A stretch of DNA of 37,155 nucleotides from Candidatus Microgenomates bacterium (GCA_015486555.1 WFRL01000058.1:1-37155); one strand, 5' to 3'; positions 4,621 to 34,663 are shown, counted from the stretch's first letter. Translations and numbers: made by a program. Notes: generated by a model not told the origin, from the sequence alone.

Positions 4621-5268
4621 CTAGGGTTTGTTTTCCAGAATCCGCAAGCGGAGAGAGCGGATGATTGCTTGGAGGTCTTTAACTGCTTCATCTAATTTAC
4701 TATCTTGGTTGACAATAAGGTAATCAAACTCTTTGTACTGCTTAGTTTCCCAAACAGCCATATTTAAATTCCAGTTCTGCCAGCCAGCTTCACTTCCCCG
4801 TTTAATGAGCCTTTTTTGGAGAACATCAAGAGAGATAGCAGTGATAAAAACCAAGGCGGTGTAAGGAAAGAGGGTTTTAATTTTATCTTTGATATTCTTA
4901 ACTCCCCGGACGTCAATCCGCCAAATAATATCCTTCCCCAAGGCTAATGTTTCCTCAAGGTGTTTTTTTTGGCCGCCGTAGAGATTGCCTCGATACTCAA
5001 CCCATTCAATAAAAGCATCCTTAGCGATTAATTGTTCAAACTCCTCTCGCGAGATGAAGTAATAATCCCGACCATGAATCTCACCTGGCCGTTTGGGCCG
5101 GGAGGTAGTGGTAACCATATGGACGACATTCTTATCTCTCTTAATAACCTCGTTCATAATAGTGTCTTTTCCAGCTCCAGAAGGCCCGGAAATAATTACT
5201 AGAACCCCACGTTGGAGTTGGGTCTTTATTTCCTTCTTTAAATCAAGGTTTAATTTAGCTGCTTTCAT
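4621..5268 (-). CDS. gmk: Guanylate kinase
   Basis: P-loop GPSGAGKDT, then TTSRPKRPGEIHGRDYYF and the ...EWVEYRGNLYG pattern of Gmk. ATGA overlap with the upstream gene. Confidence 0.9.
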   Translation of the reverse strand: MKAAKLNLDLKKEIKTQLQRGVLVIISGPSGAGKDTIMNEVIKRDKNVVHMVTTTSRPKRPGEIHGRDYYFISREEFEQLIAKDAFIEWVEYRGNLYGGQKKHLEETLALGKDIIWRIDVRGVKNIKDKIKTLFPYTALVFITAISLDVLQKRLIKRGSEAGWQNWNLNMAVWETKQYKEFDYLIVNQDSKLDEAVKDLQAIIRSLRLRILENKP

Positions 5269-5762
5269 AAACTAAGTTTATAACCAATTTGGCGCAAGAA
5301 CTTTTTTCTCTTCTTTTTTCCTTCCTCCTTCTCGATTCCCCGAGGAATTCCTCCATCGACAACTCCAAGGATAGCTCGGCCCTGGTTTGTCTGGCCAACT
5401 ATTATCTCAACAGGATTAGCAGTAGCGCAGTGGAAAGTTACTATCTCAGGCACTGAACGGAGGTGGGGAAGAATATTTATTGGATAGGCGTTAGCTAAAA
5501 AGATAAGTAAGCTGTGGCCTACCCCTAGCCGCTTTCCGTTTTCCACAGCCAGCTTAATCATTGCTGCGTCAGTTCCTTCGAAACGAATCTCTCGTGGACC
5601 GGAAGCTTCCAAAAAAGCCAATCCAAACTTAATGTTAGGAACAGCAGTTACTAAAGCTTCGTAGACATCCTCAACTGTCTTGATGAAGTGGCTGGTGGCC
5701 AAGATGAAGTTAACTTCTTCAGGTTTTTTTATCTGAACTGCCTCTACTTTTACTTCCGCCAT
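5265..5762 (-). CDS. Adenosine-specific kinase family protein (archaeal-type; 165 aa from ATG 5762)
   Basis: Collinear with the 'adenosine specific kinase' domain family as I recall it (NFILATSHFIKTVEDVYEAL...FGLAFLEASGP...GHSLLIFL...AYPINILP...TFHCATANP). This call is from memory, not a search. Confidence 0.65.
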   Translation of the reverse strand: MAEVKVEAVQIKKPEEVNFILATSHFIKTVEDVYEALVTAVPNIKFGLAFLEASGPREIRFEGTDAAMIKLAVENGKRLGVGHSLLIFLANAYPINILPHLRSVPEIVTFHCATANPVEIIVGQTNQGRAILGVVDGGIPRGIEKEEGKKKRKKFLRQIGYKLSL

Positions 5763-5788
5763 ACTCAATTTTAGCAAAGAGGTGGTAA

Positions 5789-6385
5789 TTATTCTACCCA
5801 GTCTACTTTTAACTCAGCTCTTATGCTAGGAGGAAGGGTAGCTAACCATTTTTTGACTAGGAGTTTAGCCTTATCCGGCTGGCGGTAGATGTAGATGGCG
5901 ATGTATTTTTCGTTGTAATAGCGCACTCCATAGTAACTATTTGGTTTAGGCAGGTGTTGGAGAAGGTATTTTCGTTGGAGTTTTGTTTTCAAAGCCTCCT
6001 CAAATTGAGGCGAGTAACTGCCTACTCCTATCTCATTTGCTGGGGTGTTTACCTGCCATTCTTTTAGTAGTTTGTTTTTGTAATAAATCTTGAAGGTGTA
6101 AATTGTCTTTAAACGAGGAAGCTGTCTTACTTGCCAGGTAAATGTCTTTTCATTAAGGGTGTTAAGTTGGGTTTTTAAAAAGGGTTCTATAACCAGCCTA
6201 ATTTTCTCCCTTATTACCTTTTTGGAGAAGCTGACCTTAATGGTTGAGAAGTAGTTCTCTTCTTTTGGGGAGTAATTGACTACCTTTGGCGGCTGGTTAA
6301 GAAAGATAGTTGTCGCCCCGATAAGAATAGCCAGAAAACTAAGTCCAAGAATAATTTTTTTAGCTGTTACCTTCATGGTTGGCAA
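5789..6385 (-). CDS. Hypothetical N-terminally anchored extracytoplasmic protein (198 aa)
   Basis: Single N-terminal TM (IILGLSFLAILIGATTIF) followed by a beta-rich region. Its start overlaps the 3' end of the CHAP giant gene by 13 nt. Confidence 0.6.
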   Translation of the reverse strand: MPTMKVTAKKIILGLSFLAILIGATTIFLNQPPKVVNYSPKEENYFSTIKVSFSKKVIREKIRLVIEPFLKTQLNTLNEKTFTWQVRQLPRLKTIYTFKIYYKNKLLKEWQVNTPANEIGVGSYSPQFEEALKTKLQRKYLLQHLPKPNSYYGVRYYNEKYIAIYIYRQPDKAKLLVKKWLATLPPSIRAELKVDWVE

Positions 6386-9300
6386 GATAAATTATGTAAC
6401 CAACCGACTAATCTTAAACCTGGGAGGATACTCTTCCAGCCGCCATTGTTTTCTAAAGTGATAAAACGTTGGCTTACGTTGGCGCTAGCAAAAGTTAAGG
6501 TATTCAAGCCGAGTTGGGTGACTATCCCTACGTGGCCGTTTCCGCCACCTCCTTGAAAAACTAGGATATCTCCAAGAGAGGGTGTTTTCCCAGGTTGGTT
6601 AGGAATAGCCGAGAGAAAGTGAGAACAACTTTGGGGAGCATTTACCCACCAATCTCCTGCGTTACCAAAGGTTTTGTTGTCACAAAGGTTGTAAAGGCTC
6701 TGACCGTTGTAAAGGTGGCGGTAAACATCATTAACAAATTCGGTGCATTGGACGTAATGATTTTCTTTTTCTACCCAGTTGGCATCAGCCCGGATATAGT
6801 TTTTAAATGGTCCGTTCTCTCCTGTATTGCCACAATGATAGGAGTTAACGAAGTAGCCTAGGGCCGGGTTAGGATTGGCAGGGCAGTAACAATCGGCTAT
6901 TTGATTGTCGCTACAACGATAAAGTTGATTGACTAATTTCTCCGCTTCAGCAGCAATTTCTTGGCAGCCGATTAAGGGGGCTTGGCCGATAAGGGTGTTG
7001 AAGCCGGTTATCTTTTGGTATTTCTTTCCTTGATTATCCTGAATTGTTACTTGAAGAGTGTTAGCCAGGCGACTGTTTTTGTACTCAGGTTGGAGAGGGA
7101 ATTGGTAATCGACGATTTCCTCACTTCCGACTGTTAGGTCTTTGAAGTTTGAGGTTAGGTCATAGGTTAGGGTTTTAACCAGCCGGCCGCTAGGCAGTTG
7201 ACTGTCCTTGGTATAGATCTGGCTAACATCTTTAACGGCAACGATTTTTAAATCTTTACCTTCAGCCTTCATCTTAATTCGAAAAGTTAACTTAATCTTG
7301 TCCCTGGCGGCGGCATTGCTTAAGCGGGGGAAGGCACTCCTTTCATCTTTAAGGATATATTTTGAATTGACCTTATCTAAACGCAGGTTTTTATAAAGAG
7401 TAAGATATTGGGTTCCACCTGATTGATAATAGAGGTTACTTTTTAAAAAAGCAGTTGAGAGATAAGGATACCAAAAAAGAGAAGCGGCTACTAAGGCGGT
7501 TCCCCCAGGAATAACAGTTAAGGCTAGAGTAATTCCGGTAGTCGAAGTAGCAAAGGCAGTCATTGTTCCCCACAGGCTGCTGGCTAGGCTAGCTGCACTG
7601 CTTGCCAAAGTGCTTAAAGAACCAATAAGGTGCTCTAGTCCGAAACCAACGCCGAATCCGAGGAGAAAACCTACTGGGCCTCCTATAAAACCGCCTATTA
7701 AAAAACCGCCTATTAAACCAAAAAAGACAGCCAGAAGATGGCTGAGGATAAAGTTAATAATTAAGTAAAGCCAGCCGGCAATAAAAGTCAAAATTTCTTT
7801 CCACCAGCGGCGAAGGAAGGGGTAAAGATCTTTAATAAGAGCTAAAACAGCTAGAACTGTCCCCACCCCGCTGGCCAGGCCAGCCAGATCCAAGCCTAAC
7901 TTGCTTAAGACCTTAATGCTAAGTTGGCCAATTTTCTTTAGGCTCCAGATAAGGCCTTTTTTTAAGAGTTGCTTGGGATGAGTAATCAGCCAAAAACCCT
8001 TAAAGATGCGGCCAAACCGTTTTCCAGTTGGGCTGTTCTTAAATCTCTTCCACCAGGCGGCTAACTTCTTTCTAAGGGCTCTTATGCCTCGCCGTGGAGT
8101 TGCTACCACCCTTAAAAGGAAACCAGTAACTTTTTTGTGTCTGTATTTTCTTACTGTTCTGATAATCTTTAACCGAGCCTGGCGAACTCTTTTCCCTAGA
8201 AAACTTTTTCTCCATAACTTTCGAATCTTCCTCCTTACTTTCTTTCTGAGTGTCTTAGGATGAGCAACTGCCTCCACCCCTCCGAGGATTTTGTTAATTA
8301 TTGGCCAGTGGCGGCTGTTTATTACTTCCTGAACTACCCGGCTGTCTTGGACTTCTTTTTGAACATGGTTCAATCTAATACTTAGTTGGTAAGAAGGTAG
8401 GCTAAGGAGAGTAGTTAGCTTAAGGAGCGGTTGGCCGATGAGCCTGGTTTTTAATCGCTGGAACTTAAGATAACTCCGAGCCAGGAAAGGCAGTTTAACT
8501 TCTTTGAGAATGTCTTCATGATCCTTCCTCCATTTGAGCATTTCTTCAAACTGGTGGTGAAGCTTATTCCCTTCAGTAAGAGGCTTGCGAGTGGTAACAG
8601 TCTTGCCCAAAACCCGGATGGGGCTACCCTTTTTTAACCACTCGAACTCCTTTTCCACTTCTTCAGTTGGATGAAGCAGCCAGTCGTAGGCACTAAAGGG
8701 ATTTAGCCCCTTTTCAATTATTAGTTTCCGGTTGTTTTCCTTAGTAAAGAGAGACTTGAAAAGGTACTTTTTCCAGGCCCCCTTAGGCAGTCTAAACATC
8801 CGTTGGCTGGGCCGTTTAAAGATAACTCCGGTTGTGTCGATAATTTCTTTTACTTCCGGATGGGCTTGAACAAGAGGTGATTCTTGGAGAATTTTTTCCA
8901 AGGCGGAAGGAGCAATTAAAATTTTTTCGGCGGGCTTAACGTAGGTAATATAGTTAGCTGCTTGTTCAGCTAGGGTGTTTATTTCTTCCTCATGTTTGGC
9001 GGCATCTGGAATGGAAAGTTTAAGTTGGCGGCGGATAACATCTTTAGCTAAGTTCTTAAGATCGCTGCTATTAAGCGGTGCCTGGCGGCTAAAGGCAGCC
9101 AATCGGTTGACAGCTTCTAGATGATCACTTCTTTTTTCAGTTATCGAGAAGAGGCTCTTTTGTAAATCGTTTTCTAGGTCCACCGGGTGCTTTTTTAGAG
9201 AGGCTCGGAGGTCCAGCCAGCTCTGCCTAAAAATCTTGTCTTGAACATCCTCAGAAAGAAGGAGATTATCGATAATTTTTTGGGAAACTAAACTGGCTAA

Positions 9301-10107
9301 ACTGTCCTCATCTAGTTTTTCTCCTCCCCACCAAATAAGGTTATCCACAGTCTCGGCTATTGAATGAGTCAGAAGCCTGTCCATTTCTTGTTTAACTCTT
9401 TCTAGAGCCTCTTTGTTTTTAGGCAGTTTAAGATTACCCTCAAGGAAAGTAGAGGCCTGCTGGTAGAGGTCTCCTTTTAATTCCTCTACCTGCCTCAGGT
9501 CCGTAGCTGAAGGTGGAGGTAATAGCTCCACCTCCTTGGTTTCAGCTGCTGCTTCGGTTGGGGCCTTTTCCTTGAGAACCTTTTTAAAAGGAAGAATGAT
9601 CAAATAATCAACCGGCGTTTGGTTAGTTTGGTTAATAAGTTGTTTTTCAAGGGCTTCCTGGTATGTTTCAACTACTTCATCGATGGTGCTTACTTCTACC
9701 CTTTCTATTTGCTGGTGGCTGAGAACGGCTAATAATTCTTGAAGGCTAAATGTCTGTTGGAGGTTGCCCCATAAAGCCCCGTAGGCATAGGTCTCCTTAA
9801 GAAGGTTCTTAACTGTTTCGCCTAAGCCATTAAGAATCTTAAGGGAAAGAGTGAATTTTTTTGAAGGAAGATTAATGAGAAGAGTTAGTTCTGGTTGTTC
9901 TTCTAGTTCAGAAAGTGATTGATAAAGGCTTTCTAACCTTTCCTTTCGATCTTGGTGAGTAAGGATTTCTCCGCCTACTTGGACTACTCTTTCTCGAAGG
10001 CCAAGTTTTTCAACCTCAATCAAAAAAAGGAGTTTATTAAAGCACTCTAACCAGCCTTCTATATTTTGAGTCTCTTGCCAACAAGTTTTTTTCTGGGTTT
10101 CGACCAT
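6373..10107 (-). CDS. Giant (1,244 aa) membrane protein with a C-terminal CHAP cysteine peptidase/amidase domain
   Basis: No signal peptide and about 610 aa of soluble N-terminus. An extremely Lys/Arg-rich stretch lies at nt ~8010-8265 and a Gly-rich multi-TM block at nt ~7497-7875. The exodomain is Cys-rich and ends in CHAP motifs: YVQCTEFV (Cys about aa 1121, nt 6745-6747) and NGHVGIV (His about aa 1192). Confidence 0.8.
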   Translation of the reverse strand: MVETQKKTCWQETQNIEGWLECFNKLLFLIEVEKLGLRERVVQVGGEILTHQDRKERLESLYQSLSELEEQPELTLLINLPSKKFTLSLKILNGLGETVKNLLKETYAYGALWGNLQQTFSLQELLAVLSHQQIERVEVSTIDEVVETYQEALEKQLINQTNQTPVDYLIILPFKKVLKEKAPTEAAAETKEVELLPPPSATDLRQVEELKGDLYQQASTFLEGNLKLPKNKEALERVKQEMDRLLTHSIAETVDNLIWWGGEKLDEDSLASLVSQKIIDNLLLSEDVQDKIFRQSWLDLRASLKKHPVDLENDLQKSLFSITEKRSDHLEAVNRLAAFSRQAPLNSSDLKNLAKDVIRRQLKLSIPDAAKHEEEINTLAEQAANYITYVKPAEKILIAPSALEKILQESPLVQAHPEVKEIIDTTGVIFKRPSQRMFRLPKGAWKKYLFKSLFTKENNRKLIIEKGLNPFSAYDWLLHPTEEVEKEFEWLKKGSPIRVLGKTVTTRKPLTEGNKLHHQFEEMLKWRKDHEDILKEVKLPFLARSYLKFQRLKTRLIGQPLLKLTTLLSLPSYQLSIRLNHVQKEVQDSRVVQEVINSRHWPIINKILGGVEAVAHPKTLRKKVRRKIRKLWRKSFLGKRVRQARLKIIRTVRKYRHKKVTGFLLRVVATPRRGIRALRKKLAAWWKRFKNSPTGKRFGRIFKGFWLITHPKQLLKKGLIWSLKKIGQLSIKVLSKLGLDLAGLASGVGTVLAVLALIKDLYPFLRRWWKEILTFIAGWLYLIINFILSHLLAVFFGLIGGFLIGGFIGGPVGFLLGFGVGFGLEHLIGSLSTLASSAASLASSLWGTMTAFATSTTGITLALTVIPGGTALVAASLFWYPYLSTAFLKSNLYYQSGGTQYLTLYKNLRLDKVNSKYILKDERSAFPRLSNAAARDKIKLTFRIKMKAEGKDLKIVAVKDVSQIYTKDSQLPSGRLVKTLTYDLTSNFKDLTVGSEEIVDYQFPLQPEYKNSRLANTLQVTIQDNQGKKYQKITGFNTLIGQAPLIGCQEIAAEAEKLVNQLYRCSDNQIADCYCPANPNPALGYFVNSYHCGNTGENGPFKNYIRADANWVEKENHYVQCTEFVNDVYRHLYNGQSLYNLCDNKTFGNAGDWWVNAPQSCSHFLSAIPNQPGKTPSLGDILVFQGGGGNGHVGIVTQLGLNTLTFASANVSQRFITLENNGGWKSILPGLRLVGWLHNLSCQP

Positions 10108-10152: not shown

Positions 10153-11160
10153 ATGGTTATTAAAGAACATCCAATTCCTCAGAATATAACCACCTATAAA
10201 TTCCGCCTGGTGGGGAATATGACTCTAGTTCAGTTCTTGGAGGTCCTAGGGGGGGTGGGTTTAGCCTTTGTCTTTTGGAAGTCTCCTCTTTACCCAATTC
10301 TTAAATTTCCTCTTGCTCTTAGTTCGGCCAGCTTAGGGTTTTTAATGGCTTTTGTTCCTCTCGAGGAGAGACCTCTTGATGTTTGGTTAGTCTCTTTTAT
10401 TAAGAAGATCTACCGGCCGACTCTTTTTATTTACCATTCTCTAGCCCACTTACCACTTTACCAAACCTATAAGCCGGAAAAAAGGGAGGAGGCAACCAAA
10501 TTAATTGCAACTAACAAACTGAATAGCTTTCTCAAAAAGAGTTCTCATTTAGCTGGGGTTTCCCAAAATGATCTTATCCATAAATACATTGATCAGCTTT
10601 TCCAAGAGGAGACAATTGAATCGTCATTCACTAAGGAAGAGAAAAGAGAAAAGAAGAAAACCCAATTACCTAAGGTACCTCCCTCCAGGTTGCCAATTAG
10701 GAGAAAAAAGATAGTTCTAGTTTCGTCCCCTCCTGAGCTGGTTAAGAAAAAAGAGAAGAAACGGGTTAAAAAACCACCTCAGGTAGAAACCATTCTCCAA
10801 ACTTCCCTGTCACCAGTTAAGATTGAGAAAAAGCCGACTGTAAAAGGAACAGCACCGACTTTTGACACATCCTTACCTCGACCAACTAAGGCGAACTTGC
10901 CTTCAGGCATCATTTTTGATGAGGCTAATCACCCCCTAGTGGGGGCAATCGTGGAAATAAAGGATAAAGATGGTCTGCCGCTTCGAGTTACTAAGACTAA
11001 TATAATTGGTCAGTTTACTTTAGTAACTCCTCTTCCTTCAGGAGAATATCTTGTAACCGTGGAAAAAGATGGTTACCAAGCTCAACCTATAAAGCTTAAA
11101 CTTGAAGGGAAAGTGGTTAAACCGTTAAAGATAAAAGCCAAAGAGGTTAAAGGTGCCTGA
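10153..11160 (+). CDS. PrgI/VirB3-like membrane protein fused to a C-terminal carboxypeptidase-regulatory-like beta-sandwich (335 aa)
   Basis: N-terminus IPQNITTYKFRLVGNMTLVQF + two TM helices + EERPLDVWL matches the PrgI family pattern. A Lys/Pro-rich linker follows. The C-terminus reads GIIFDE..PLVGAIVEIKDKDG...TNIIGQFTL..LPSGEYLVTVEKDGYQ. Confidence 0.7.
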   Translation: MVIKEHPIPQNITTYKFRLVGNMTLVQFLEVLGGVGLAFVFWKSPLYPILKFPLALSSASLGFLMAFVPLEERPLDVWLVSFIKKIYRPTLFIYHSLAHLPLYQTYKPEKREEATKLIATNKLNSFLKKSSHLAGVSQNDLIHKYIDQLFQEETIESSFTKEEKREKKKTQLPKVPPSRLPIRRKKIVLVSSPPELVKKKEKKRVKKPPQVETILQTSLSPVKIEKKPTVKGTAPTFDTSLPRPTKANLPSGIIFDEANHPLVGAIVEIKDKDGLPLRVTKTNIIGQFTLVTPLPSGEYLVTVEKDGYQAQPIKLKLEGKVVKPLKIKAKEVKGA

Positions 11161-12868
11161 GATAAACAGCTCTCCAAGGTTTATAGACCGATAAAAAGGT
11201 TTGTTGATGAAGAACCTTCCCTTGGTGAAAGACTTGCCAGTCAAAGGCAACCTTTGCTCCCCATGAGGGCCACTCAATCTGTTTGACTGTGCCTAGAGGT
11301 AGAGTAGGATCGTTTTGGTAAAGAGGCGGCGGCGGCGGCGTTTGGTCCCAGATTCGAGGAGAAGAAATGATTACCCGACGGCCATCTTTTGTCCCGTAAA
11401 GGTAGAATACAAGATGATGTTTTTTTAGGTCGGTTGAGGTTTGGATAAGAAGGTAACTGGGAAGGTCATTCTTGAATTTAAGATCAACATGAGGGGCGAA
11501 AACAGTAGCGTCAAAACCTGGCGGCGAGTTTTGTTCATAATAACCCACCCGGTAGGAATGATAATGACGTTCGATTATCGGCAGGCCAGCTTTGAGGACA
11601 GCTCGGAAAAGAGTAGTGGAGACTTGGCAGACGCCGCCACCGTCGTCAAGGATAGTTTTACCCTCTTTTATAACATATGATTGGTGGTAGCCAGTCGCTG
11701 CTGAGATCCTTCCTAAGGCTTTATTAAATGAAAAAACCTCTCCAGGGTTAACTAAGATTCCGTTGAGCCGGGAGGCGGCCAATTTTACGTTGTGCATCCG
11801 GCTAGCTGATGAGTGCCAAAACCATGATTCACCTCGCCCGACTAGTTCCTTTATGCCATAAGAGTTTGTGTCCTTAGTAGTTATCTTAGGAGGAAGATAG
11901 TTGCCTTTAATGGTTAAGGTTACTGTGGGAGGAAAGTGGTTGTCTTCTACTGTTCTAGCCAAGTCTAATTCAAGGGTTTGGAAATTTAATTGAAAGCCGG
12001 GTCGGGAAGGCCTAAAAGCAATTACTCGTCCCCCTTTAAACTCAAAGAGAGCATTTTCAGGGGTAGTATTAAAGAAAGCCTGCTTATCTTTGGCTACATT
12101 TTCTAGACTTTCTTTATCTACTGGGGCATAGAAAGAAAGAAGAGATATTTTTTCTTCAGCAGTTAACTCGACTTCTTTCTTGTTTCTTTGGAGGATAATC
12201 TTTGTTTTTAATAACTTGTAGGCCTTAGTGTAGGTCTTTCTTTTAGCTTCGTCAGATGGTTGGAGACTTATTTTCTCTACTGGTAGCTCTATTATTGACT
12301 TCTTTTCTTGAAAAACTAATTTTACTTTTGCTATGAGATTTTCTTGATCAATTTGGTAACCGTCTTTGGCTGGCAGGTAGATAAGCTTTCCCTGATGATA
12401 GCTTAACTTAGCCGCCTGGGGATAAGGCAATTCCTTCTGGAAGGCCTTTTCTAATTGATGACTGAGTTGGTGAGGGTTGATTACTATGCTAGGTTGGAGG
12501 GTTAAAGGCTGATAAAGATTGGTAGTAAAAAATAGCCATCGCTCCAGCCAACTGGAGTTTTTAAATTGCTGTTGCCAATTATCTAGACTCTTTTGAGCGG
12601 AGAAGGAAATGGCTAAATCCTTTAGATTAAAAGAATGATTTTTGCCTTGGAAAGTAAAGGTTATTTCTTGGGGATAGTTAAGGGTATTTAACTGCCCTAG
12701 GGCAAAGAAATAAGGATAGCCGCCAAGCTCTTTGTTAACTATCCTTAGTCTTAAGGGAGTAATGATTCCACTGGTAACGAGCAAACCGCTAAGGAGGTAA
12801 GAAAAAATAAGAAAGGTAATTCCTCCTTGGAGCCAGCTAGTGAAAGTTGATCGGTAATTTAGCCTCAT
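11147..12868 (-). CDS. VanW family protein with N-terminal membrane anchor (573 aa)
   Basis: DDGGGVCQVSTTLFRAVLKAGLPIIERHYHSYRVGYY is the VanW core motif. N-terminal TM present. Converges on and overlaps the PrgI-like gene by 14 nt. Confidence 0.8.
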   Translation of the reverse strand: MRLNYRSTFTSWLQGGITFLIFSYLLSGLLVTSGIITPLRLRIVNKELGGYPYFFALGQLNTLNYPQEITFTFQGKNHSFNLKDLAISFSAQKSLDNWQQQFKNSSWLERWLFFTTNLYQPLTLQPSIVINPHQLSHQLEKAFQKELPYPQAAKLSYHQGKLIYLPAKDGYQIDQENLIAKVKLVFQEKKSIIELPVEKISLQPSDEAKRKTYTKAYKLLKTKIILQRNKKEVELTAEEKISLLSFYAPVDKESLENVAKDKQAFFNTTPENALFEFKGGRVIAFRPSRPGFQLNFQTLELDLARTVEDNHFPPTVTLTIKGNYLPPKITTKDTNSYGIKELVGRGESWFWHSSASRMHNVKLAASRLNGILVNPGEVFSFNKALGRISAATGYHQSYVIKEGKTILDDGGGVCQVSTTLFRAVLKAGLPIIERHYHSYRVGYYEQNSPPGFDATVFAPHVDLKFKNDLPSYLLIQTSTDLKKHHLVFYLYGTKDGRRVIISSPRIWDQTPPPPPLYQNDPTLPLGTVKQIEWPSWGAKVAFDWQVFHQGKVLHQQTFLSVYKPWRAVYLRHL

Positions 12869-13310: not shown

Positions 13311-13664
13311 ATGCTGGGACTAAAACTATTAACCGATGTTTTGGCAGATGATAATGGAGTTGATGTCTATGAGAACTTTCTTGTTGGCAATAAACCTTCT
13401 CCCTTTACTAATTTAGCTTCACTAATAAATCTTCTCTATAAGAGTTTATTAGTGTTAGCGGGTATTGTTTTGTTTTTTCTTCTTATTTTGGGAGGGTTTA
13501 ACTATCTAGCCGGGGCAGGCCAGGAGAAATCAAATCAGGTTGAGAAGGGAAAGAAGGCTATCACTGGAGCGATAATAGGTTTTTTGTTGGTCTTCGCTGC
13601 TTATTGGATTATTCAGATTATTAGTTTGCTCACTGGAGTGAAGATTCTTAAATCTAATCTCTAG
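13311..13664 (+). CDS. VirB2/TrbC-type T4SS pilin-like two-TM protein (117 aa)
   Basis: Two hydrophobic helices flank the loop GGFNYLAGAGQEKSNQVEKGKKAITGAIIGF, the pattern I recognise from T4SS pilin families. There is no classical N-terminal signal peptide. Confidence 0.65.
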   Translation: MLGLKLLTDVLADDNGVDVYENFLVGNKPSPFTNLASLINLLYKSLLVLAGIVLFFLLILGGFNYLAGAGQEKSNQVEKGKKAITGAIIGFLLVFAAYWIIQIISLLTGVKILKSNL

Positions 13665-13681: not shown

Positions 13682-14047
13682 ATGCCAGAAACAGGTCTTT
13701 CTATCGGCAACAAAATTTTTGGAGAGATAAAACCGCCGTCTGCAGGTGGAAAAGTAGGTGGATATGAAAGCAGTTTTAGTGGTTTGAGCAGTTTTATTAA
13801 GAATCTTATTTACCTTATCTTTGTTGTAGCCGGCCTTTATGCCCTCTTGAATTTCATTATGGCTGGTTTTGAGTTTATCGGAGCAGGGGGGGATAGTAAT
13901 AAAATAACCAGCGCCTGGAATAAAATCTGGCAGAGCCTCTTAGGTTTGATTATTATGATCGCTGCCTTTGCTCTAGCGGCCGTAGTCGGCCAAGTTCTCT
14001 TTGATCGTTGGGACTTTATTCTCAAACCAACTATTCCCACTCCTTAG
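13682..14047 (+). CDS. Second VirB2/TrbC-type T4SS pilin-like two-TM protein (121 aa), paralog of 13311-13664
   Basis: Same architecture: LIYLIFVVAGLYALLNFIMAGFEFIGAGGDSNKITSAWNKIWQSLLGLIIMIAAF. It starts 17 nt after the first pilin-like gene. Confidence 0.65.
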   Translation: MPETGLSIGNKIFGEIKPPSAGGKVGGYESSFSGLSSFIKNLIYLIFVVAGLYALLNFIMAGFEFIGAGGDSNKITSAWNKIWQSLLGLIIMIAAFALAAVVGQVLFDRWDFILKPTIPTP

Positions 14048-14696: not shown

Positions 14697-17600
14697 ATGC
14701 AAAAAGAAGTTATAGATAAGCTGAAGGTATTAACTAAAGAAGATTTAAGAGGCATTCGTGTCCTTTCCCTGGGCGAAGGGTTTCAGGTCTACCGTTTATT
14801 GGAAGAAGTAGCTGAAGCCTCTACTTTACTGGAATTAGGAGATACTCGGCCGACAAGGATAGAAAACCAAGTAAAGAGTGATTTGATTAAGAGGGATGCT
14901 CTTGAAAAAGGAAATGAAGCTCTAGAGGAATTAGTTAAAAGCCGTCTTCTTTTTACTGTCCTTCTAATTGACCTCTACCATCAAGGAACAGAAGGAAAAA
15001 GAAGAGTTACTGAATTATTAGAGATTGTTTTTCCTGGGGATGACTCGAGAAAATCCCAGATAATTGACTTTTTAGAGAGTAAAGGTATAACTAACCCTGT
15101 TGGCGTTAAGGTTTTTAATGAGTTTATTAACCAGATAAAGAAAGAGGTCGGTAAAGGTTGGCCAAAAAAGGCGAGAAGAGGAAGCTCCATGAGGCAAAAA
15201 CAATACCAACTTATTAAGTGGTACTGGCGAGTGCGAGGTGTTGGTCTGCTCACTAAATATACAAGGGAGATTCGAGATCAGGGACCAGGGGCACCAAAAA
15301 AAGTAGTGTATCGGTTGAGAATGAAAGGGAAATTTATAGAGATTAGTAGATCAAAAATCATAGAGATTAATAAGTTACTGGAATCTAAGGATAAAGATAA
15401 AGGTTGGGTGGGCCCGAGAATTAAGGCAATTTTTTCAGACCCCAACCTGCAAGAAAGTCTTAAGGAGTGGTTAAAGCGTTCCAAAAAAGAGATTCTTTTT
15501 CTGAGTACGGAAAGAGATACGAGTAAGGAGGAACGGCTATTGGATTTATTAGAAAAGAAAGTGAGACAGATAAAACCGGAAGTATTTGATGAAGAGACGA
15601 GAGAACGACTTGAGGATATTAAGGAGAGAATAAACGAGAGGAGATATCAATTAAAAGATGAAACAGCCGTTGACCTGGTTGAATCAATAACCAATGAGAT
15701 GCAACCTAAAGAAGTTGTGGAAGCAAAAGGAAGATCTAATACTTGGGGTTTAAGTGAGTGGTTGGCCAAGTACTATCGAGCCTTAGACCTAGAAAGGTTT
15801 CTCAATGCTTTGGGGAGGGTTGGTAGATTCTTGAGCCAAGTTAGCAAGTATCAGAAGGAGTTTAATAAATATTTACAGGCTCCAGAGAGTGAGAAAGATA
15901 ATTTGACTCAGTCCTTTCTTTCTCTCCTTAGCGATTTATCCTTAGCTACCAACCTCTTGGAGTTAATGGCTCTTGACAGTATTAAAAGAACTAAAATAAC
16001 TTACCAAGATTTCTTTAACTATACAAGGAAAAAACAGTTAGAATTTCTTAAAGACAATAAAATTATATCTGATGATGTTGCTAGATGGTTCCTGGATGTT
16101 TTTGATTTAGAAGAGGAGATAAAGGAAAAATTTGCTAGTTTGATTGAACGAATACCCAGAAAGACAGCTAAAGAGATTTTTAAGAAGAGGTGGCAAGAGA
16201 TTAACGGAGTTGATACAAGTGATTTTGCTGAGGCACTAGGAGATTTTGAGGATTTGCTTGCAAAAAAAGACAAAGTAACTCCCGACGATTTGCGCCGAAT
16301 AGCATCTCGTTATAGTTATGAAGGTGGAATATTTGATTGGGAAAGTAAACAGAGAGATGAGTTGCGGAATCTTTTTGGTGAGGAGGGGGAGGCAGAGTTC
16401 TTAGATCTGAAAAAAAGAGAATCGTCCTTGAGTGGTGATGAAGAGGAAAAATTGAAAAAGTATTACGACAAGTTGCGCAGTCGGATGTATCAGATTTTAA
16501 ATGACCAGATTCTTGGAGTCAATCAAGAATATGGAAGCCAAACTGTTTTGGAGCCGACTATTCGGATTATTGCTTTGTTAGCTCTTCTGCCTCGAGCAGA
16601 AAGGTCTAATTTTTATGGCTTTCTTTTTGCTTCTAAGTTTGACGTTGCTAGATTGCAGATTAAAGATCTTAGTTACCAGCCTTTCGACCACATTAAGATT
16701 AATGGCCTTCAGGGTTTAGAGTTTGAGATAAATGTAGAAGAAGGAAAAACAGAGACCTTGACTGTTTTTGATTTTTTAGATGTTTGGGAGGAACCGGCGA
16801 ATAAATACTTTGTTCACTCCCAGGAACGTGATAGATTAAAAGATCCTAAAAAGTGGGAAAGTTGGGTTGTTCAGTATGCTCTGGCTTTAACAGAGAGTGA
16901 ACGGCAGAAGATTGAAAAGGCAGTTATGAAGCAGACGGTCAAGGAACGTTTAGGTATAGAGTACGATGAGTTAAGTAGCGAAGAGAAGAGTAAAGTTGAG
17001 GTTCTTATGTTGGCTGCTTTAGGAGTGTCTAATGCTACCTTTAGGTCAGCCTTTATCCACACCGGCGCTGACATGAAAGAAACCGGACTCCTTAAAGGAT
17101 TAATTGGCTCCTCATTAGCCGCAGAACTTTATATCAATCTGTATGGTGGCTTGGGGCTTAGTCAGGAGATAATAACTACTATGTCCGATGTCCTTTCCCG
17201 AACTCGGAAGGGTAGGCTTCCTATCCTTGAGTATATTACTAAAGATGAAGACGTGTTTGGAAATAATGAAGATAAAAAAGAAATATTTAAAAATGGGATG
17301 AAGGTTCTTTTCCTTTTACCAATGAATAATGGCTTCCGCCGGATAGGTGAGGTTCATTTATTAGCTCGAGATAAAGAATTGAGGGAGGAGTTATTTAGCC
17401 ATCCCCTGGTGGCGGAGATGATTACTTTAATTGATACTACACCGGAGCTAAAGGAGAAATTAATAAACGTGTTTGAACTTAAGGGAAAGAAAAAGCCGCT
17501 TGATGCAAAACAGGTAGGAGCTCGAGAAATTTTAACTAAAATAATGGAGAAGTGGAGCTATCATTATCTTTTACGGAATGAAGAAAATAAAGAAGAAGAA

Positions 17601-18446
17601 TTTCTTCCTATTAAAGCGGCTGATTACGGTGATTATATTAAATACTCTCAAGCCTTTGATGCCGTAAAAGGTGATCTTTTTAATTTTGCTTACCGGCCAA
17701 CTAAGCCTCTTTTGATAAAAATTTATACCACGCTGGCTAATACTTCAGCTGGTCCAGAATTTGCTAAAACCTTTATGAGGCCATTAATAAGTGATTATAT
17801 TGATTTTTACAAGCCCCGCGGCTTAACAAAACCAATCTTAGGTTTACCTTTCTTACCCTTAAAGATGCTCTCTAATCTCCTTTCAGGGAAAAGGATCCTC
17901 AGCCGGGAAGATTATCTTGATCTTTTCCAGGCTAGAGTTAAAAATCCAAGTAAGAGGATAATGGGGGCGGAGGCAGGTGGAGAGGTGGCCCATTATGATT
18001 TGGTGAAAGGGCGCTGGGTGTTTGAGGAAAAACCAGTTTTGGAACTTTGGAGAGAAAAGTTCCACCGGCGAACGGTGGGGGAATATGGTGAGGAGACTGA
18101 GGAAGGTCAGGGAGTAAGTGAAAAAGCTATGTCGAGGGTGGATATGTTACGCCACTTTTGGTTAATGGCCAAAGGAGAGGCATCAATTGCTACCCTTCTT
18201 GGTCTGGACGATGCAGTTATTAAGAGGAAAGATTTGGTAGATGACTTAGTTGAGTTCCGGAATATGCATATAATTGATGCCCCAATGTTTAATAGTCTTA
18301 TTCGGGAAAAGTTTGGTTTTTGGTTTTATCTGCAGTACCGTTTCCATTTAGGTGGGCTTGAGTTCACCACCCTATTAGATTTTTTGGGCAGTGGGATAGG
18401 AGTAGGTCTTTCTTCGGCCTTGAGTGAAGGATTTAAGACTCGTTAA
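14697..18446 (+). CDS. Giant (1,249 aa) orphan protein, predicted mostly soluble and helical, with a short C-terminal hydrophobic segment
   Basis: Uninterrupted 3.75-kb ORF with Glu/Lys-rich composition. I can see no signal peptide, P-loop or catalytic motif. The last ~40 aa (LEFTTLLDFLGSGIGVGLSSAL) are hydrophobic. Confidence 0.75.
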   Translation: MQKEVIDKLKVLTKEDLRGIRVLSLGEGFQVYRLLEEVAEASTLLELGDTRPTRIENQVKSDLIKRDALEKGNEALEELVKSRLLFTVLLIDLYHQGTEGKRRVTELLEIVFPGDDSRKSQIIDFLESKGITNPVGVKVFNEFINQIKKEVGKGWPKKARRGSSMRQKQYQLIKWYWRVRGVGLLTKYTREIRDQGPGAPKKVVYRLRMKGKFIEISRSKIIEINKLLESKDKDKGWVGPRIKAIFSDPNLQESLKEWLKRSKKEILFLSTERDTSKEERLLDLLEKKVRQIKPEVFDEETRERLEDIKERINERRYQLKDETAVDLVESITNEMQPKEVVEAKGRSNTWGLSEWLAKYYRALDLERFLNALGRVGRFLSQVSKYQKEFNKYLQAPESEKDNLTQSFLSLLSDLSLATNLLELMALDSIKRTKITYQDFFNYTRKKQLEFLKDNKIISDDVARWFLDVFDLEEEIKEKFASLIERIPRKTAKEIFKKRWQEINGVDTSDFAEALGDFEDLLAKKDKVTPDDLRRIASRYSYEGGIFDWESKQRDELRNLFGEEGEAEFLDLKKRESSLSGDEEEKLKKYYDKLRSRMYQILNDQILGVNQEYGSQTVLEPTIRIIALLALLPRAERSNFYGFLFASKFDVARLQIKDLSYQPFDHIKINGLQGLEFEINVEEGKTETLTVFDFLDVWEEPANKYFVHSQERDRLKDPKKWESWVVQYALALTESERQKIEKAVMKQTVKERLGIEYDELSSEEKSKVEVLMLAALGVSNATFRSAFIHTGADMKETGLLKGLIGSSLAAELYINLYGGLGLSQEIITTMSDVLSRTRKGRLPILEYITKDEDVFGNNEDKKEIFKNGMKVLFLLPMNNGFRRIGEVHLLARDKELREELFSHPLVAEMITLIDTTPELKEKLINVFELKGKKKPLDAKQVGAREILTKIMEKWSYHYLLRNEENKEEEFLPIKAADYGDYIKYSQAFDAVKGDLFNFAYRPTKPLLIKIYTTLANTSAGPEFAKTFMRPLISDYIDFYKPRGLTKPILGLPFLPLKMLSNLLSGKRILSREDYLDLFQARVKNPSKRIMGAEAGGEVAHYDLVKGRWVFEEKPVLELWREKFHRRTVGEYGEETEEGQGVSEKAMSRVDMLRHFWLMAKGEASIATLLGLDDAVIKRKDLVDDLVEFRNMHIIDAPMFNSLIREKFGFWFYLQYRFHLGGLEFTTLLDFLGSGIGVGLSSALSEGFKTR

Positions 18447-28030: not shown

Positions 28031-29029
28031 ATGATTGATGTTGCAGCTGAAAAGGGAAGATTGAAAAGTGAAGAACTTCAAGGCGAAATGCTGTTGGCAA
28101 GACTTCTCCGCTTATATGATGTTAGCGATGCATTTCTAGAGGAGATGGGATTATCGTTCCTTGAGTTTGAGAAAGGTTTAAGGAGGCGAGCCCTAAACAT
28201 GTGGCTGTCAGGGCACAATAGAGTAGAGGGAACAGTATGGAAAACAGCTTTGGATCCACGGCACATTTGGGATCCCAAAGGGAAACTAGCAGAAATGGTT
28301 TTTGATCAATTGGAACCCTTACCAAGAAGGTCACACGAAAAGGAATCAGAGGAAAAAGAAAGAAGGAAACAAGATTTGCAAAGGTGGTTATCTTGGTGGA
28401 AAAGGTGGCAGTTACAGACAAAACTGAGTCCAGATCAATTAAGGGGCGAACCAAGGATGGTTATTAAAAGGACAGCCCAATGGTTAAAAGATAATCTAGT
28501 GGCTTATACGGCGGGTCATTTGGAAAAACTAGAGCCTGGAGATTTGCAGATGATCCTAGCGTTAGCATCTGTAGTCGACTCTCAAAAGTTATTTGGACTG
28601 CAATATAATGAGGATCGATGGTTGCTCAAGTTAGACCCAGAAGTGAGGAGTATTGATAATGTGAAATCGGGCAGTCGGCAGGGTAAGTGGGTGTACAATA
28701 GGCATTGCGGACAACGAAGGAATGGTGTTATTTGTCTACACGAGTATGATAGTCAACAACGGGGTGGTGTAGGGGATAATTTCATCGAAGTAGCTGGTGA
28801 TCTTATTTCCTTAGTCGAGCGGGCTGAGCAAATAAGTGAAAGGGGAAAAGGAGCAGAAGAAGCAGCGCTTAGCAAAGAAAATGCATCTAAATTACTAACT
28901 CTGACTTTTACGCACTATGAATATAATGTCAGACGTATCTTAACTTTGTCAATTTTAGAGAAAGTCTTAGAAAGAGGAATTGGAAGCCACTTGGAGCTAA
29001 AGGTAGAACCAGCAAAAAGAGAAAGATAA
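28031..29029 (+). CDS. Orphan soluble protein (332 aa), possible N-terminal HTH
   Basis: Own TATAAT (27996-28001) and GAGG SD. Trp/Arg-rich (RWLSWWKRWQLQ). The segment LSFLEFEKGLRRRALNMWLSGHNRVEG is XRE-HTH-like. No family recognised. Confidence 0.6.
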   Translation: MIDVAAEKGRLKSEELQGEMLLARLLRLYDVSDAFLEEMGLSFLEFEKGLRRRALNMWLSGHNRVEGTVWKTALDPRHIWDPKGKLAEMVFDQLEPLPRRSHEKESEEKERRKQDLQRWLSWWKRWQLQTKLSPDQLRGEPRMVIKRTAQWLKDNLVAYTAGHLEKLEPGDLQMILALASVVDSQKLFGLQYNEDRWLLKLDPEVRSIDNVKSGSRQGKWVYNRHCGQRRNGVICLHEYDSQQRGGVGDNFIEVAGDLISLVERAEQISERGKGAEEAALSKENASKLLTLTFTHYEYNVRRILTLSILEKVLERGIGSHLELKVEPAKRER

Positions 29030-31169: not shown

Positions 31170-32822
31170 ATGTCTTTTGGTTTGTATCGTTTTCCAAATC
31201 CAATTCTTCTTTTAAGGAGAAAACAAAGAAGTATTTTTAAAGCTAGCCTAATTATTCTGGTTTCAATACTTTTTTCCCGTTTACTAGGGGTAGTTAGAGA
31301 CCGTCTTTTTACTACTTACTTTTTCGGTGGTCGGGAGTGGCAATTAGATGTTTATTACGCTGCCTTTAGGATTCCAGACACTCTTTACCAGCTTCTTATT
31401 AGTAGTGTGATAATGGCTGGTTTTTTACCCATTTTTAGCCAGAAGTTAGTCCGTCAGTCTAAAAGTCGAGCCTTCAATTTTGCTTTGGTAACTATCTTTA
31501 GTCTTATCTTTATCTTTTCTCTTATTGTTGCTCTATCTTACCCCTTTTGGCCTCAACTCCTTAACTGGTTAGCTCCTGGTTTTAATTTTTCCCAAAGAAA
31601 ATTGCTTCTTCAACTGACTCCCTATATTGTTTTAGCAGAGTTAATTCTAGCCGCCTCAAACCTAAGCGTTCTCATTCTGCAAACACATAATAACTTCATT
31701 TCCCCCGCCCTTTCCCCTTTAATGTACAACTTGGGGATAATTTTGGGTATCGTTGTCCTCTCGCCACGTTATCAAGCTTTGGGTTTAGCCTATGGGGTGG
31801 TCTTAGGCAGTTTAGGTCATCTTTTTATCCAACTGCCAGCCTTAATTCAGGTGATCGACGGCAAACTAAATCTCAGTCTTTATTCTTGGCAAGAAATTAA
31901 GATTGATCTAATCAGGTTTTTTGACCTCTCTTTACCTAATTTCTTATCCATTTTCTTAATTCAGGTCCAAACCAACTGGCTAACTCGATTAGCCACCTTT
32001 TTAACTATGGGGAGTCTTTCCTTACTCAATCTAGCTAACAATCTTATCCAATTGCCAATAAGCATTTTTGCCTTAGCCTTGGGTCAAGCTATTTTTCCTA
32101 AGCTAGCTTTGTCTCAAGAAAGAATGGATCAGAAACGGTTTATCTATCTTTTTGAACAAGCTATTCAACAGACATTTTTTATTATCACCCCCCTATTAAT
32201 TCTTTTCATAGTTCTCCGTCTCCCTCTAGTCCGCTTGATTTTAGGATCTCGTCATTTTAGTTGGCGGAATACAGTTATTACTGCTAAAATTATTGAGATT
32301 ACCCTGCCAATTATCCTGGCCCAGAGCTTGAGTGTTACCTTTCAAAAGGTATTTTTGGCTCTTGGCCAAAGTCGTTTCATTCTCATCGCTCAATTCTTTT
32401 CTACCCTCACTTTTGTAGGATTGACTCTTTATTTATTACCCCGCCAACCAACAGTTCTGAGCTTAGCTTGGGCTCTTTCCTTAGCAGCAGTGGTTAAATT
32501 TTTCCTAGCTGGTTGGTTACTTCTAAAAGGTAATCCTCTTCTCCGTGTAGCTATTCTGAACTCTCTTCAGACCTTTGTTAAGATTACTTTAGTGGGGGTA
32601 ATCTCCCTCCTCTTGGCCTGGTTAAGCTATCGCTTAGGTAACTCGCTCTTTAACCCAGCCTACATAGTCAGTCTTTTTTGGATCATCTCTTTAGTGGGTG
32701 TAGTAACTGGGGCAAGTTATCTTAGCTTAAGCTATTGGTTAAAGATTAGCCCCCTTTTTTCTTTGGCTAGCCAGTTTTATTTTTTAAAGCTAAGATCAAA
32801 TGTTTTTCGGGTGAAACGGTGA
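31170..32822 (+). CDS. murJ: Lipid II flippase MurJ/MviN (550 aa)
   Basis: N-terminal SRLLGVVRDRLFTTYFFGG...DVYYAAFRIPDTLYQLL signature and about 14 TM helices. Confidence 0.85.
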   Translation: MSFGLYRFPNPILLLRRKQRSIFKASLIILVSILFSRLLGVVRDRLFTTYFFGGREWQLDVYYAAFRIPDTLYQLLISSVIMAGFLPIFSQKLVRQSKSRAFNFALVTIFSLIFIFSLIVALSYPFWPQLLNWLAPGFNFSQRKLLLQLTPYIVLAELILAASNLSVLILQTHNNFISPALSPLMYNLGIILGIVVLSPRYQALGLAYGVVLGSLGHLFIQLPALIQVIDGKLNLSLYSWQEIKIDLIRFFDLSLPNFLSIFLIQVQTNWLTRLATFLTMGSLSLLNLANNLIQLPISIFALALGQAIFPKLALSQERMDQKRFIYLFEQAIQQTFFIITPLLILFIVLRLPLVRLILGSRHFSWRNTVITAKIIEITLPIILAQSLSVTFQKVFLALGQSRFILIAQFFSTLTFVGLTLYLLPRQPTVLSLAWALSLAAVVKFFLAGWLLLKGNPLLRVAILNSLQTFVKITLVGVISLLLAWLSYRLGNSLFNPAYIVSLFWIISLVGVVTGASYLSLSYWLKISPLFSLASQFYFLKLRSNVFRVKR

Positions 32823-34663
32823 TCACTGGCTGAGTAATAAGAAAGGTTATCCAGTTTAGTTTTTGATTGGGGGAGGAAGATTAAGCTACCCACTTTATTT
32901 TCTATTGGATAAGTTAAAGGCAGACTGAGTTGATTAGAATTGAAATTAATTTTTAGCTGTCCTCGAGAGGTTGAGAAAGAGACCTCCTGCCATTTGTTTT
33001 CTTCTACTTGAGGTAGAATAAAGAACTTTGATCCTCGTCCATCACTCATTAAAACACCAAACTGAAGATGGAAATCTTGGTAATACCAACCCAAGTTTAG
33101 AGTGATTTTATCGACCTTTAAACTAAGAAGATTAGAAGGGGTTGTTCTCTTTTGATTAAGCTGGAGCTGGAAGCTTAACCACCTTATTTTTTCCTCAGGG
33201 GGAATAAAAAAGAATTGGTGATACTCTTTGGTTAGAAGAAGGCTATAGTCTTGAGGATTAGCTGAAACACCCCTCCCCCGAGGTAGTTTGTCAATTTGTT
33301 TAAGAATAATTATTCCAGCCTGATGCTGCCTCAGAGCTAATTTGGAATCAAAATGGTGGTTGGTTACCACTAGATATGTTTTCTCCTCTTGTAAAGGTCC
33401 GGCATAGGTTTCCATCTGCCAGAGGCCATCCGGCCAGAAGCGGAAATGGAGGTAATTGTCAGCCAACAGTTGCCCCTGATTGGATACAAGAAGGCCAACT
33501 CTTCTTTTATCGGAACTTTTTAAACCGATGATGGACAAGGAGGGATTGGAATCTATATGGAAATAGGTTCGCCAAGGCAAGAGATGGAGTTGTTGCCAAG
33601 CGTACCAGCGGGGCTTAGCAGCTAAGCCAGGCTTCTCATTAGTGAAGAGTCCCCATCTGCCCCAATACTTCTGAGATGGATTGAAGCCATCCTTTACCTC
33701 GAAGAGGAAAAGTTTGTCCTGGGGGCGAATGAAAGGGGTAAGTTTTCCAACCGTAGCCAAAGTGTGCCAGTAACCATAATTGGAGTCATATTTAGGGTTG
33801 ACTTGGCCGTCGATACCCCACTCAGTAATGAAGATTGGTAGTTGGGGTAAATCCTCCTTTTTTAACAACTCCTTAGCTAGAAGATACTCGTTGAGTATTT
33901 TTTCTGGCTGGGGGTGATAGGCATGATAAGAGAAAAAATCTAAACGAAGCTTCCTTTTTTTTACTTCCCGCAGGAAAAAAGCTAACTTTTTTTGGTCAAA
34001 GTAACTCCAAGATGGTCCACCGATAAGATAAGTAGTTGAGGTTGGTGGTAAAGATGAAAGAGTTAGTTGGTAAAGATTCAGGTAGGTTTTGATACTCATA
34101 TGACCAAAAAGATTAGGTTCATTCCAGACCTCGTAAATAAGATTGTTTAGGCCTCTCTCTTCCGAAAAGTGTCTTACTGTCTGGCTAATAATTTGAGACC
34201 ATAACTGAGGGTTTTTAAGGTGGCCTGTAGGAGCATGGTTAGTAGTTGCTTGGATGGGAAAGTAAGAGAGGACCAGGGCTGGTCGGCTGCCACTAGCTAA
34301 GATTTCATTAACCGCTTGATCGAGTTGGCGCCAGTTAAACTGGAGTTGGTTATTTTTAAAAGTAACGGTTTGATAATTATCAAAGATATGGTCTAAGCGA
34401 ATATATTGAGCGGGAGAGTTTTTAAGGTAAGGGATAGTTACTGCCAGCATTGGGGATGAGTCTTCACCGCCTTGAGCCAAGTTCTGCCAGAAAGGTTGAG
34501 TTGTTTTACTTCTGGCGGAAAAATATATAAGGAAGTGGTGTTCTTGGCTTAAGTTTGCCCGACTAAAAAAAAGACGGAGGGAATTGAAATTATACCTGAT
34601 AAGAATTAAAGAAATAAAGAGAACAAAGACTAAAGATAACTTAAGCAGATTTTTTTTGATCAT
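32777..34663 (-). CDS. Membrane-anchored clan GH-A glycoside hydrolase (GH5/GH39/PslG-like) with a C-terminal beta-rich domain (628 aa)
   Basis: N-terminal TM. Acid/base motif YEVWNEPN and nucleophile motif IFITEWG at (beta/alpha)8-appropriate spacing. ATGA overlap with the upstream gene. Confidence 0.75.
   Translation of the reverse strand: MIKKNLLKLSLVFVLFISLILIRYNFNSLRLFFSRANLSQEHHFLIYFSARSKTTQPFWQNLAQGGEDSSPMLAVTIPYLKNSPAQYIRLDHIFDNYQTVTFKNNQLQFNWRQLDQAVNEILASGSRPALVLSYFPIQATTNHAPTGHLKNPQLWSQIISQTVRHFSEERGLNNLIYEVWNEPNLFGHMSIKTYLNLYQLTLSSLPPTSTTYLIGGPSWSYFDQKKLAFFLREVKKRKLRLDFFSYHAYHPQPEKILNEYLLAKELLKKEDLPQLPIFITEWGIDGQVNPKYDSNYGYWHTLATVGKLTPFIRPQDKLFLFEVKDGFNPSQKYWGRWGLFTNEKPGLAAKPRWYAWQQLHLLPWRTYFHIDSNPSLSIIGLKSSDKRRVGLLVSNQGQLLADNYLHFRFWPDGLWQMETYAGPLQEEKTYLVVTNHHFDSKLALRQHQAGIIILKQIDKLPRGRGVSANPQDYSLLLTKEYHQFFFIPPEEKIRWLSFQLQLNQKRTTPSNLLSLKVDKITLNLGWYYQDFHLQFGVLMSDGRGSKFFILPQVEENKWQEVSFSTSRGQLKINFNSNQLSLPLTYPIENKVGSLIFLPQSKTKLDNLSYYSASDHRFTRKTFDLSFKK

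Follow-up and report, generated by a model that had tools for sequence, protein, structure and literature searches.

What does a wall-cutting domain do at the end of a 1,244-residue protein, and which machine, if any, does it serve? The question is raised by a gene on a 37,155-nucleotide stretch of DNA from Candidatus Microgenomates bacterium (GCA_015486555.1 WFRL01000058.1:1-37155; 'the window' below means this whole stretch). A preliminary description had pictured the product, here called the giant, as a large cytoplasmic domain followed by a polybasic tract, a Gly-zipper membrane bundle and a Cys-rich exodomain tipped with a CHAP hydrolase. The main functional clue, a type IV secretion system (T4SS) neighbourhood, was absent from that description. 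We conclude that the giant is probably the peptidoglycan hydrolase that fills the role of VirB1 in a chromosomal, monoderm-type (MPF-FATA-like, MPF standing for mating-pair formation) T4SS of Patescibacteria (candidate phyla radiation, CPR), because its CHAP domain has an invariant Cys, His and Asn, its neighbours include T4SS genes, orthologues keep this synteny and PrgK of Enterococcus faecalis provides a precedent.

A rare family of giant CHAP proteins

The gene and the parts of its product, listed from the N terminus to the C terminus, are as follows.

6373..10107, minus strand: giant CHAP hydrolase open reading frame (ORF), 1,244 residues, ATG start (ORF listing, translation, homologues)
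8278..10107, minus strand: N-terminal all-alpha domain, residues 1-610, presumed cytoplasmic (AlphaFold, hydropathy)
7903..8277, minus strand: polybasic amphipathic tract, residues 611-735 (composition, hydrophobic moment)
7444..7902, minus strand: Gly-zipper membrane block, residues 736-888 (hydropathy, GxxxG count)
6976..7413, minus strand: immunoglobulin (Ig)-like beta-sandwich spacer, residues ~899-1044 (AlphaFold, Foldseek)
6760..6975, minus strand: Cys-rich linker, residues 1045-1116, with C1048, C1065, C1073, C1075 and C1092 (alignment)
6376..6759, minus strand: CHAP amidase/peptidase domain, residues 1117-1244 (Pfam, PHROG, PDB profiles, AlphaFold)

The preliminary description had the ORF at 6373-10107 right and did not state its strand; the plus-strand frame over the same interval is riddled with stop codons. 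An identical 1,244-residue product is predicted in several independent assemblies. A word-indexed search with the full-length protein returned two homologues, P0001 and P0002 (79% and 52% identity), and three more full-length relatives, P0004-P0006, share roughly 21-37% identity and retain CHAP. The product shared across assemblies and its conservation at these identities establish the ORF as a real gene. Promoter and terminator scans gave counts no higher than shuffle expectation.

The family is rare. An exhaustive, single-round profile search with residues 1-1100 against 1.84 billion representative proteins yielded nine matches: P0002, P0003 (a fragment identical to the window giant), P0004-P0006 and four proteins that matched solely the membrane block and the sandwich. 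A word-indexed search with the alignment of the membrane core retrieved two fragments and none of the sequences from which the alignment was built; Gly-rich low-complexity words had probably filled the limit of 8,000 candidates. A profile scan of genome contigs for the family found three loci.

An exchangeable hydrolase module

The C-terminal CHAP domain and the order of domains given earlier were borne out. PF05257 (CHAP) matched residues 1117-1208 (E = 1.4e-11; score 45.1 bits, cutoff 26; profile positions 7-79 of 81) and is the sole Pfam domain found in the giant; the same region matched PHROG endolysin families, and AlphaFold modelled residues ~1119-1244 with a predicted local distance difference test score (pLDDT) of ~80-88. 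When the CHAP profile of the family was compared with the PDB, glutathionylspermidine (Gsp) amidase was the best match (1.8e-5), followed by lysin L2, LytN, LysK and PcsB. A check set beforehand, the alignment of the catalytic Cys and His with CHAP, came out positively: Cys1121 (QCTEF) and His1192 (GHVGIV) fall inside the stretches aligned to all five of these structures and, with Asn1210, are invariant in seven aligned family members.

The hydrolase differs among relatives. CHAP is found in the giant, in P0004-P0006 and, as a weak match, in P0008, one of the four proteins whose similarity is confined to membrane block and sandwich; the other three (P0007, P0009 and P0010) carry an M23 peptidase instead. 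Because M23 replaces CHAP on the shared block and sandwich, a wall hydrolase is the constant feature on this anchor. As far as sequences can show it, the exchange indicates that the property under selection is a peptidoglycan peptidase at that position, which argues for a location outside the membrane. On an anchor that is conserved, the hydrolase module can thus be either CHAP or M23.

Between membrane and hydrolase lie a sandwich and a linker. The sandwich (residues ~899-1044) is all-beta in the AlphaFold model, with pLDDT 80-93, and has no Pfam match. Foldseek aligned it to generic Ig-like/E-set beta-sandwiches (ApaG, UNC119, RhoGDI and TRAP, E ~4e-5), matches that describe its fold without offering a clue to function. 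The Cys-rich linker was modelled with pLDDT <50. Nine cysteines populate the C-terminal part (1048, 1065, 1073, 1075, 1092, the catalytic 1121, 1142, 1161 and 1242), and none of the nine varies in six full-length homologues, the most distant of which is 34% identical. The Cys-rich exodomain of the preliminary description therefore stands as far as its cysteines go; its disulfides are an inferred role, and the CxC...HC cluster could instead bind metal.

A secretion-system neighbourhood

Relatives of the giant are encoded among T4SS genes. In three loci (L004, L006 and L007) the order is a divergent gene for an unannotated protein of ~1,340-1,413 residues, the giant, a ~200-residue protein, a TrsD/TraC-like protein, a VirB4-type ATPase, dnaN and dnaA; in L004 and L006 a PrgI-CarboxypepD_reg gene sits between the ~200-residue gene and the TrsD/TraC-like gene. 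L009 reads VirB4, giant, a 200-residue Big_5 protein, dnaN and dnaA, and L015 would repeat this pattern if the contig-truncated ORF before its partner homologue is a giant. Judged from sequence, these loci correspond to the MPF-FATA-like T4SS locus that Patescibacteria are described as having close to the origin (PMC12102498), and the window itself shows features typical of a Patescibacteria genome. Orthologues with as little as ~25% identity keep the synteny with VirB4, TrsD, PrgI and pilins, and so do the variants with M23. In the window and its two closest relatives, the cluster lies apart from virB4, between UvrD/PD-(D/E)XK helicase-nuclease and nucleotide kinase genes. The members of the cluster in the window, besides the giant, are the following.

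5789..6385, minus strand: single-pass membrane partner gene, 195-198 residues (ORF, L004 orthologue, family alignment)
10153..11160, plus strand: PrgI (VirB3-like)-CarboxypepD_reg fusion, divergent neighbour (Pfam PrgI E = 4.7e-5, CarboxypepD_reg E = 1.4e-8)
13311-13664 and 13682-14047, plus strand: two tandem VirB2-like T4SS pilin genes (NCBIfam Mbov_0395, E = 1.6e-5 and 5.6e-4, weak matches)
14697..18446, plus strand: 1,249-residue companion protein (BLASTP, synteny)

Wherever the locus of a relative continues beyond the giant (L001-L010), the partner gene follows, and its orthologue in L004 was matched at E = 3e-35. Its start overlaps the stop of the giant by 4 nucleotides with the annotated 195-residue start, or by 13 nucleotides with the longest ORF; since stop and start codons overlap, translational coupling is probable. 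In distant members of the partner family, the N-terminal anchor is followed by a Big_5 Ig-like domain. In position and size the partner matches PrgL/VirB8-like partners.

On the other side, the PrgI fusion starts 45 bp from the divergent giant gene and consists, beyond PrgI, of a Lys/Pro-rich linker and a C-terminal CarboxypepD_reg beta-sandwich; the same fusion adjoins the giant in L004 and L006. Orthologues of the two pilins belong to PF18895 (T4SS_pilin). Two divergent tandem pilins also agree with the 'pilin arrays' reported for Patescibacteria T4SS. The 1,249-residue companion, rich in Lys/Arg and in Asp/Glu and without a strongly hydrophobic segment, had no match in Pfam, NCBIfam or PHROG. 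It does match the 1,339-residue neighbour in L004 (BLASTP, E = 5e-29) and is kept beside the giant in all relatives, as a divergent neighbour of 1,075-1,413 residues; it is a candidate for an unannotated T4SS component. A paralogous relationship between this companion and the N-terminal domain of the giant was ruled out, as sequence comparison finds no relation.

Could this neighbourhood be incidental, and the giant be a housekeeping hydrolase for wall remodelling or division under cytoplasmic control, as in the FtsEX-PcsB/CwlO or RipC systems? We consider this very unlikely. PcsB-type CHAP domains are indeed among the PDB matches, the neighbours include a VanW (PG_binding_4) protein and, farther off, MurJ, and in the window nucleotide kinases rather than virB4 come after the giant. 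However, T4SS synteny persists across distant orthologues and M23 variants, no FtsE/FtsX-like genes are adjacent, and a family with nine matches in 1.84 billion proteins is far too rare for a core division role.

N-terminal region and membrane block

The long N-terminal region was said to lack a signal peptide, and this held: a hydropathy scan detected no hydrophobic segment before residue 733, and hence no signal peptide. Structure prediction and a Foldseek search had been proposed for this part in the preliminary description. The AlphaFold model of residues 1-700 is all-helical, with a moderate mean pLDDT of 65, and Foldseek found no fold relative of these 700 residues in the PDB (best E = 1.0). 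The N-terminal domain also had no match in Pfam or NCBIfam and no sequence-profile match in the PDB, and it is kept only in P0001, P0002 and P0004-P0006. Its only cysteines, C9 and C22 (CW...W.EC.N motif, 10041-10083, minus strand), are also the sole cysteines in the first 1,047 residues of the giant; both are invariant in six of six full-length homologues, although identity in the N-terminal domain is ~21-26%.

The polybasic tract and the Gly-zipper block that follow were likewise as first reported. Residues 611-735 hold 42 K/R against a single D/E (isoelectric point 12.0), and the predicted helices are strongly amphipathic, with a helical hydrophobic moment of up to 0.71. Nine GxxxG motifs occur in residues 736-888 compared with three in the other 1,090 residues, and this block is the conserved core common to the CHAP giants and their M23-bearing relatives.

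A multi-helix block of this kind raises another interpretation, that the giant unites a translocon subunit of extended VirB6 type with a VirB1-like hydrolase in one fusion protein, with the Gly-zipper helices forming part of the channel or pilus platform and the hydrolase as an add-on. The main defining trait of VirB6 homologues is a set of 4-6 hydrophobic helices, and the 'extended' members (for example those of 700-900 residues in MPF-FA systems) likewise combine several such helices with large hydrophilic domains in T4SS loci (PMC12857230); some classes of Patescibacteria, moreover, are reported to have scarce or undetectable VirB6 (PMC12102498). In L004, L006 and L007 the giant is the sole multi-hydrophobic-helix protein between the ~1,340-residue gene and virB4. 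The giant, however, shows no detectable VirB6/TrbL homology: it had no match to TrbL, VirB6 or PrgH in Pfam (E <= 1) or NCBIfam (E <= 0.01). To our knowledge, extended VirB6 proteins do not bear hydrolase domains.

Relatives also have a separate VirB6-like candidate. A protein of ~483-498 residues that has no Pfam match and contains about 6-8 hydrophobic segments adjoins their clusters (L006:4061-5557, L007:2197-3684 and L003:506-1957), and one copy weakly matches most of the profile of MMCAP2_0566, a conjugal-transfer membrane family of Mycoplasma integrative and conjugative elements (E = 0.013). This makes the protein a candidate for the 'missing' VirB6, and a better one than the giant; the window contains no homologue of it. 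The notion that the giant is the only VirB6-like protein of the locus was dropped, the ~495-residue protein of the relatives having more hydrophobic segments. Fusion to a VirB6-like subunit accordingly strikes us as decidedly unlikely.

Comparison with known wall hydrolases

Southlakia epibionticum, the one species that is genetically tractable, requires its T4SS for epibiotic growth (PMC10633639), and the peptidase and lysozyme genes that lie 3' of virB4 in this species are themselves essential (PMC12102498). Profiles leave the VirB1, VirB6 and VirB8 equivalents of Patescibacteria mostly undetected, VirB1 homologues are seldom found near virB4, and other hydrolases may take their role (PMC12102498). 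For one lineage of Patescibacteria, whose T4SS parts list is incomplete, the giant family provides a concrete wall-hydrolase candidate.

The essential T4SS locus SEML1_0006-0019 of S. epibionticum ML1 shares with the loci of the giant family an origin-proximal place, VirB2-like pilin arrays and wall hydrolases beside virB4, and by gene order L009 resembles it (PMC10633639, PMC12102498). The lineage of the window differs from S. epibionticum ML1 in that its cluster is split from virB4.

The closest precedent for the giant itself is PrgK of the E. faecalis plasmid pCF10, which has an intracellular N-terminal domain (residues 1-253), a transmembrane helix (254-274) and extracellular LytM, SLT and CHAP domains, and which binds PrgL, a ~200-residue, single-pass, VirB8-like protein (PMC11323569). 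The giant resembles this DELTA-class protein in its N-terminal domain, membrane anchor, terminal CHAP, monoderm-type T4SS locus and ~200-residue single-pass partner (PMC11323569, PMC12857230). The known Gram-positive VirB1 homologues are all membrane-anchored, with extracellular enzymatic domains (PMC12857230). The layout was therefore overstated when it was presented as exceptional, since PrgK and other Gram-positive T4SS hydrolases are similar (PMC11323569, PMC12857230): a cytoplasmic domain, a membrane anchor and an extracellular CHAP within a T4SS locus are already known.

The differences are nevertheless substantial. Whereas PrgK has one transmembrane helix and an N-terminal domain of ~253 residues, the giant has 4-5 Gly-zipper helices with ~735 residues ahead of them, including a 125-residue polybasic tract. 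PrgK combines LytM and SLT/muramidase domains with a regulatory CHAP; in the giant CHAP is the sole hydrolase domain, and an Ig-like sandwich and a Cys-rich linker precede it. Outside CHAP, no similarity between the two sequences was detected. TraG (pIP501), TrsG (pGO1) and CD419 (CTn2), which represent the ALPHA and other classes, are likewise membrane-anchored wall hydrolases of T4SS loci, with cysteine peptidase domains of CHAP or NlpC/P60 type, but they are much smaller than the giant: they have one anchor, little or nothing on the intracellular side and, in most cases, an SLT domain. Profiles of the TraG/TrsG/CD419 type are those used to detect 'VirB1' in Patescibacteria (PMC12102498). 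The ALPHA, BETA and DELTA prototypes of VirB1 have a glycosidase domain and the giant has none; for this reason we place it outside the named classes, as a variant that works like VirB1.

What is new is a rare unannotated family with a ~735-residue, presumably cytoplasmic part of no known fold, a multi-helix Gly-zipper anchor and an Ig-like spacer. Also new are the lack of a glycosidase domain, the interchangeable peptidase module and two conserved unannotated companions, the ~195-residue single-pass partner and the ~1,250-residue protein, to which the family draws attention.

Membrane topology

Several observations weigh against a VirB1 role. Where LysK and Gsp amidase have a Glu in their catalytic site, the giant has Ser1208, a notable deviation, though CHAP is defined by its Cys and His. 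SLT, lysozyme or glucosaminidase domains were not found in the giant (Pfam, E <= 1; NCBIfam and PHROGs, E <= 0.01). In PrgK it is the SLT domain that is active, and CHAP was inactive in tests (PMC11323569). No VirB4 or TrsD homologue was detected in the 37-kb window, so that it is orthologues that tie the giant to the ATPase. The membrane block, in addition, yielded no confident model when AlphaFold2 was run on residues 690-1244 with an 8-sequence alignment (pLDDT <50), and the number of its clear hydrophobic segments is even (four), which with the N terminus inside would place CHAP in the cytoplasm.

The topology proposed in the preliminary description, cytoplasmic N terminus and extracellular CHAP, thus was not confirmed by hydropathy or AlphaFold. 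The Kyte-Doolittle and Hessa scales agree on the four clear segments (residues ~738-758, 772-795, 798-824 and 862-888) and on a marginal, Ser/Ala/Thr-rich fifth stretch (~827-860); with the N terminus inside, CHAP could therefore lie outside only if this marginal stretch is a true fifth span or if the first segment is re-entrant.

We summed flank and loop charges over eight non-redundant family members. The K/R to D/E ratio was 34:0 over the 20 residues that lead up to the first hydrophobic segment, 30:16 in loop 1, which follows this segment, 6:3 after the third segment and 5:5, without a positive excess, after the last. On the first and last of these counts, a cytoplasmic N terminus appears solid and the C-terminal flank lacks a positive bias. 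The positive loop 1 agrees with neither a simple five-span nor a four-span model.

In the four-span alternative, with both termini inside, the C-terminal part would be cytoplasmic, CHAP would be an amidase acting on a cytoplasmic substrate and the cysteines would bind metal. Such an arrangement would accommodate the four clear segments, the CxC...HC spacing, which is compatible with metal binding, and the fact that the best PDB profile match of CHAP is the cytoplasmic Gsp amidase (1.8e-5, as above). The net positive loop 1 also misfits the simplest five-span model with the N terminus inside; yet a four-span model places this loop outside too, so its charge argues equally against that model. 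The relatives that switch to M23, a family acting on peptidoglycan, speak against this arrangement, as do the Ig-like sandwich before the hydrolase, the Big_5 domain behind the N-terminal anchor of the partner, the missing positive excess after the last segment and the PrgK precedent (PMC11323569). We regard a cytoplasmic CHAP as highly improbable.

Functional grounds thus point the other way from the segment count. Relatives place M23 instead of CHAP behind this membrane block, which indirectly favours a hydrolase outside, as do the Ig-like sandwich that precedes the hydrolase and the invariance of the eight non-catalytic cysteines. With the precedent of PrgK, these features make it very probable that the CHAP domain of the giant lies outside the membrane.

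Proposed mechanism

By analogy with characterised systems, we infer the following for the topology, enzymatic activity, partner interactions and substrate of the giant as a VirB1-role hydrolase. The N-terminal ~735 residues would be cytoplasmic, with the basic helices against the inner face of the membrane, and would dock the giant to the secretion machine or to the ~1,250-residue companion. The Gly-zipper helices would anchor it and probably oligomerise it, while the Ig-like sandwich and the Cys-rich linker would project CHAP into the wall. There, the Cys1121/His1192 site would cut peptide stems or cross-bridges locally, opening the way for the channel and the VirB2-like pilus, and may possibly also cleave the wall of a host cell where the epibiont attaches. 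The ~195-residue partner would position or regulate the hydrolase, as PrgL/VirB8 does for PrgK. A fragment of residues ~890-1244 is a defined construct for testing which peptidoglycan type, that of the cell itself or of a host, is cut.

The same layout could be read more ambitiously, as a coupling device across the membrane, peculiar to a Patescibacteria T4SS, in which the cytoplasmic domain senses or binds the ATPase machinery or the companion and an oligomeric Gly-zipper bundle switches on the wall-cutting tip, so that the wall of the host is breached during epibiotic attachment. If true, this would be a combined anchor, channel element and hydrolase without a described counterpart; we think it unlikely.

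Other genes of the window

The VanW protein lies between the PrgI fusion and the pilins (VanW and PG_binding_4; 11147-12868, minus strand), an arrangement that the two closest relatives share. Possibly it serves the cluster as one more accessory at the wall. Directly 3' of the giant-partner pair are genes for an adenosine-specific kinase (PF04008) and a guanylate kinase (4621-5777, minus strand). Close relatives keep this kinase synteny, which sets nucleotide-salvage genes beside the secretion locus in an organism that is likely to depend on host nucleotides. Elsewhere in the window, two ORFs are without a family match (763 residues at 34660-36951, minus strand; 332 residues at 28031-29029, plus strand), and a 628-residue GH39-like glycosyl hydrolase (32777-34663, minus strand) adjoins the MurJ and TerC genes.

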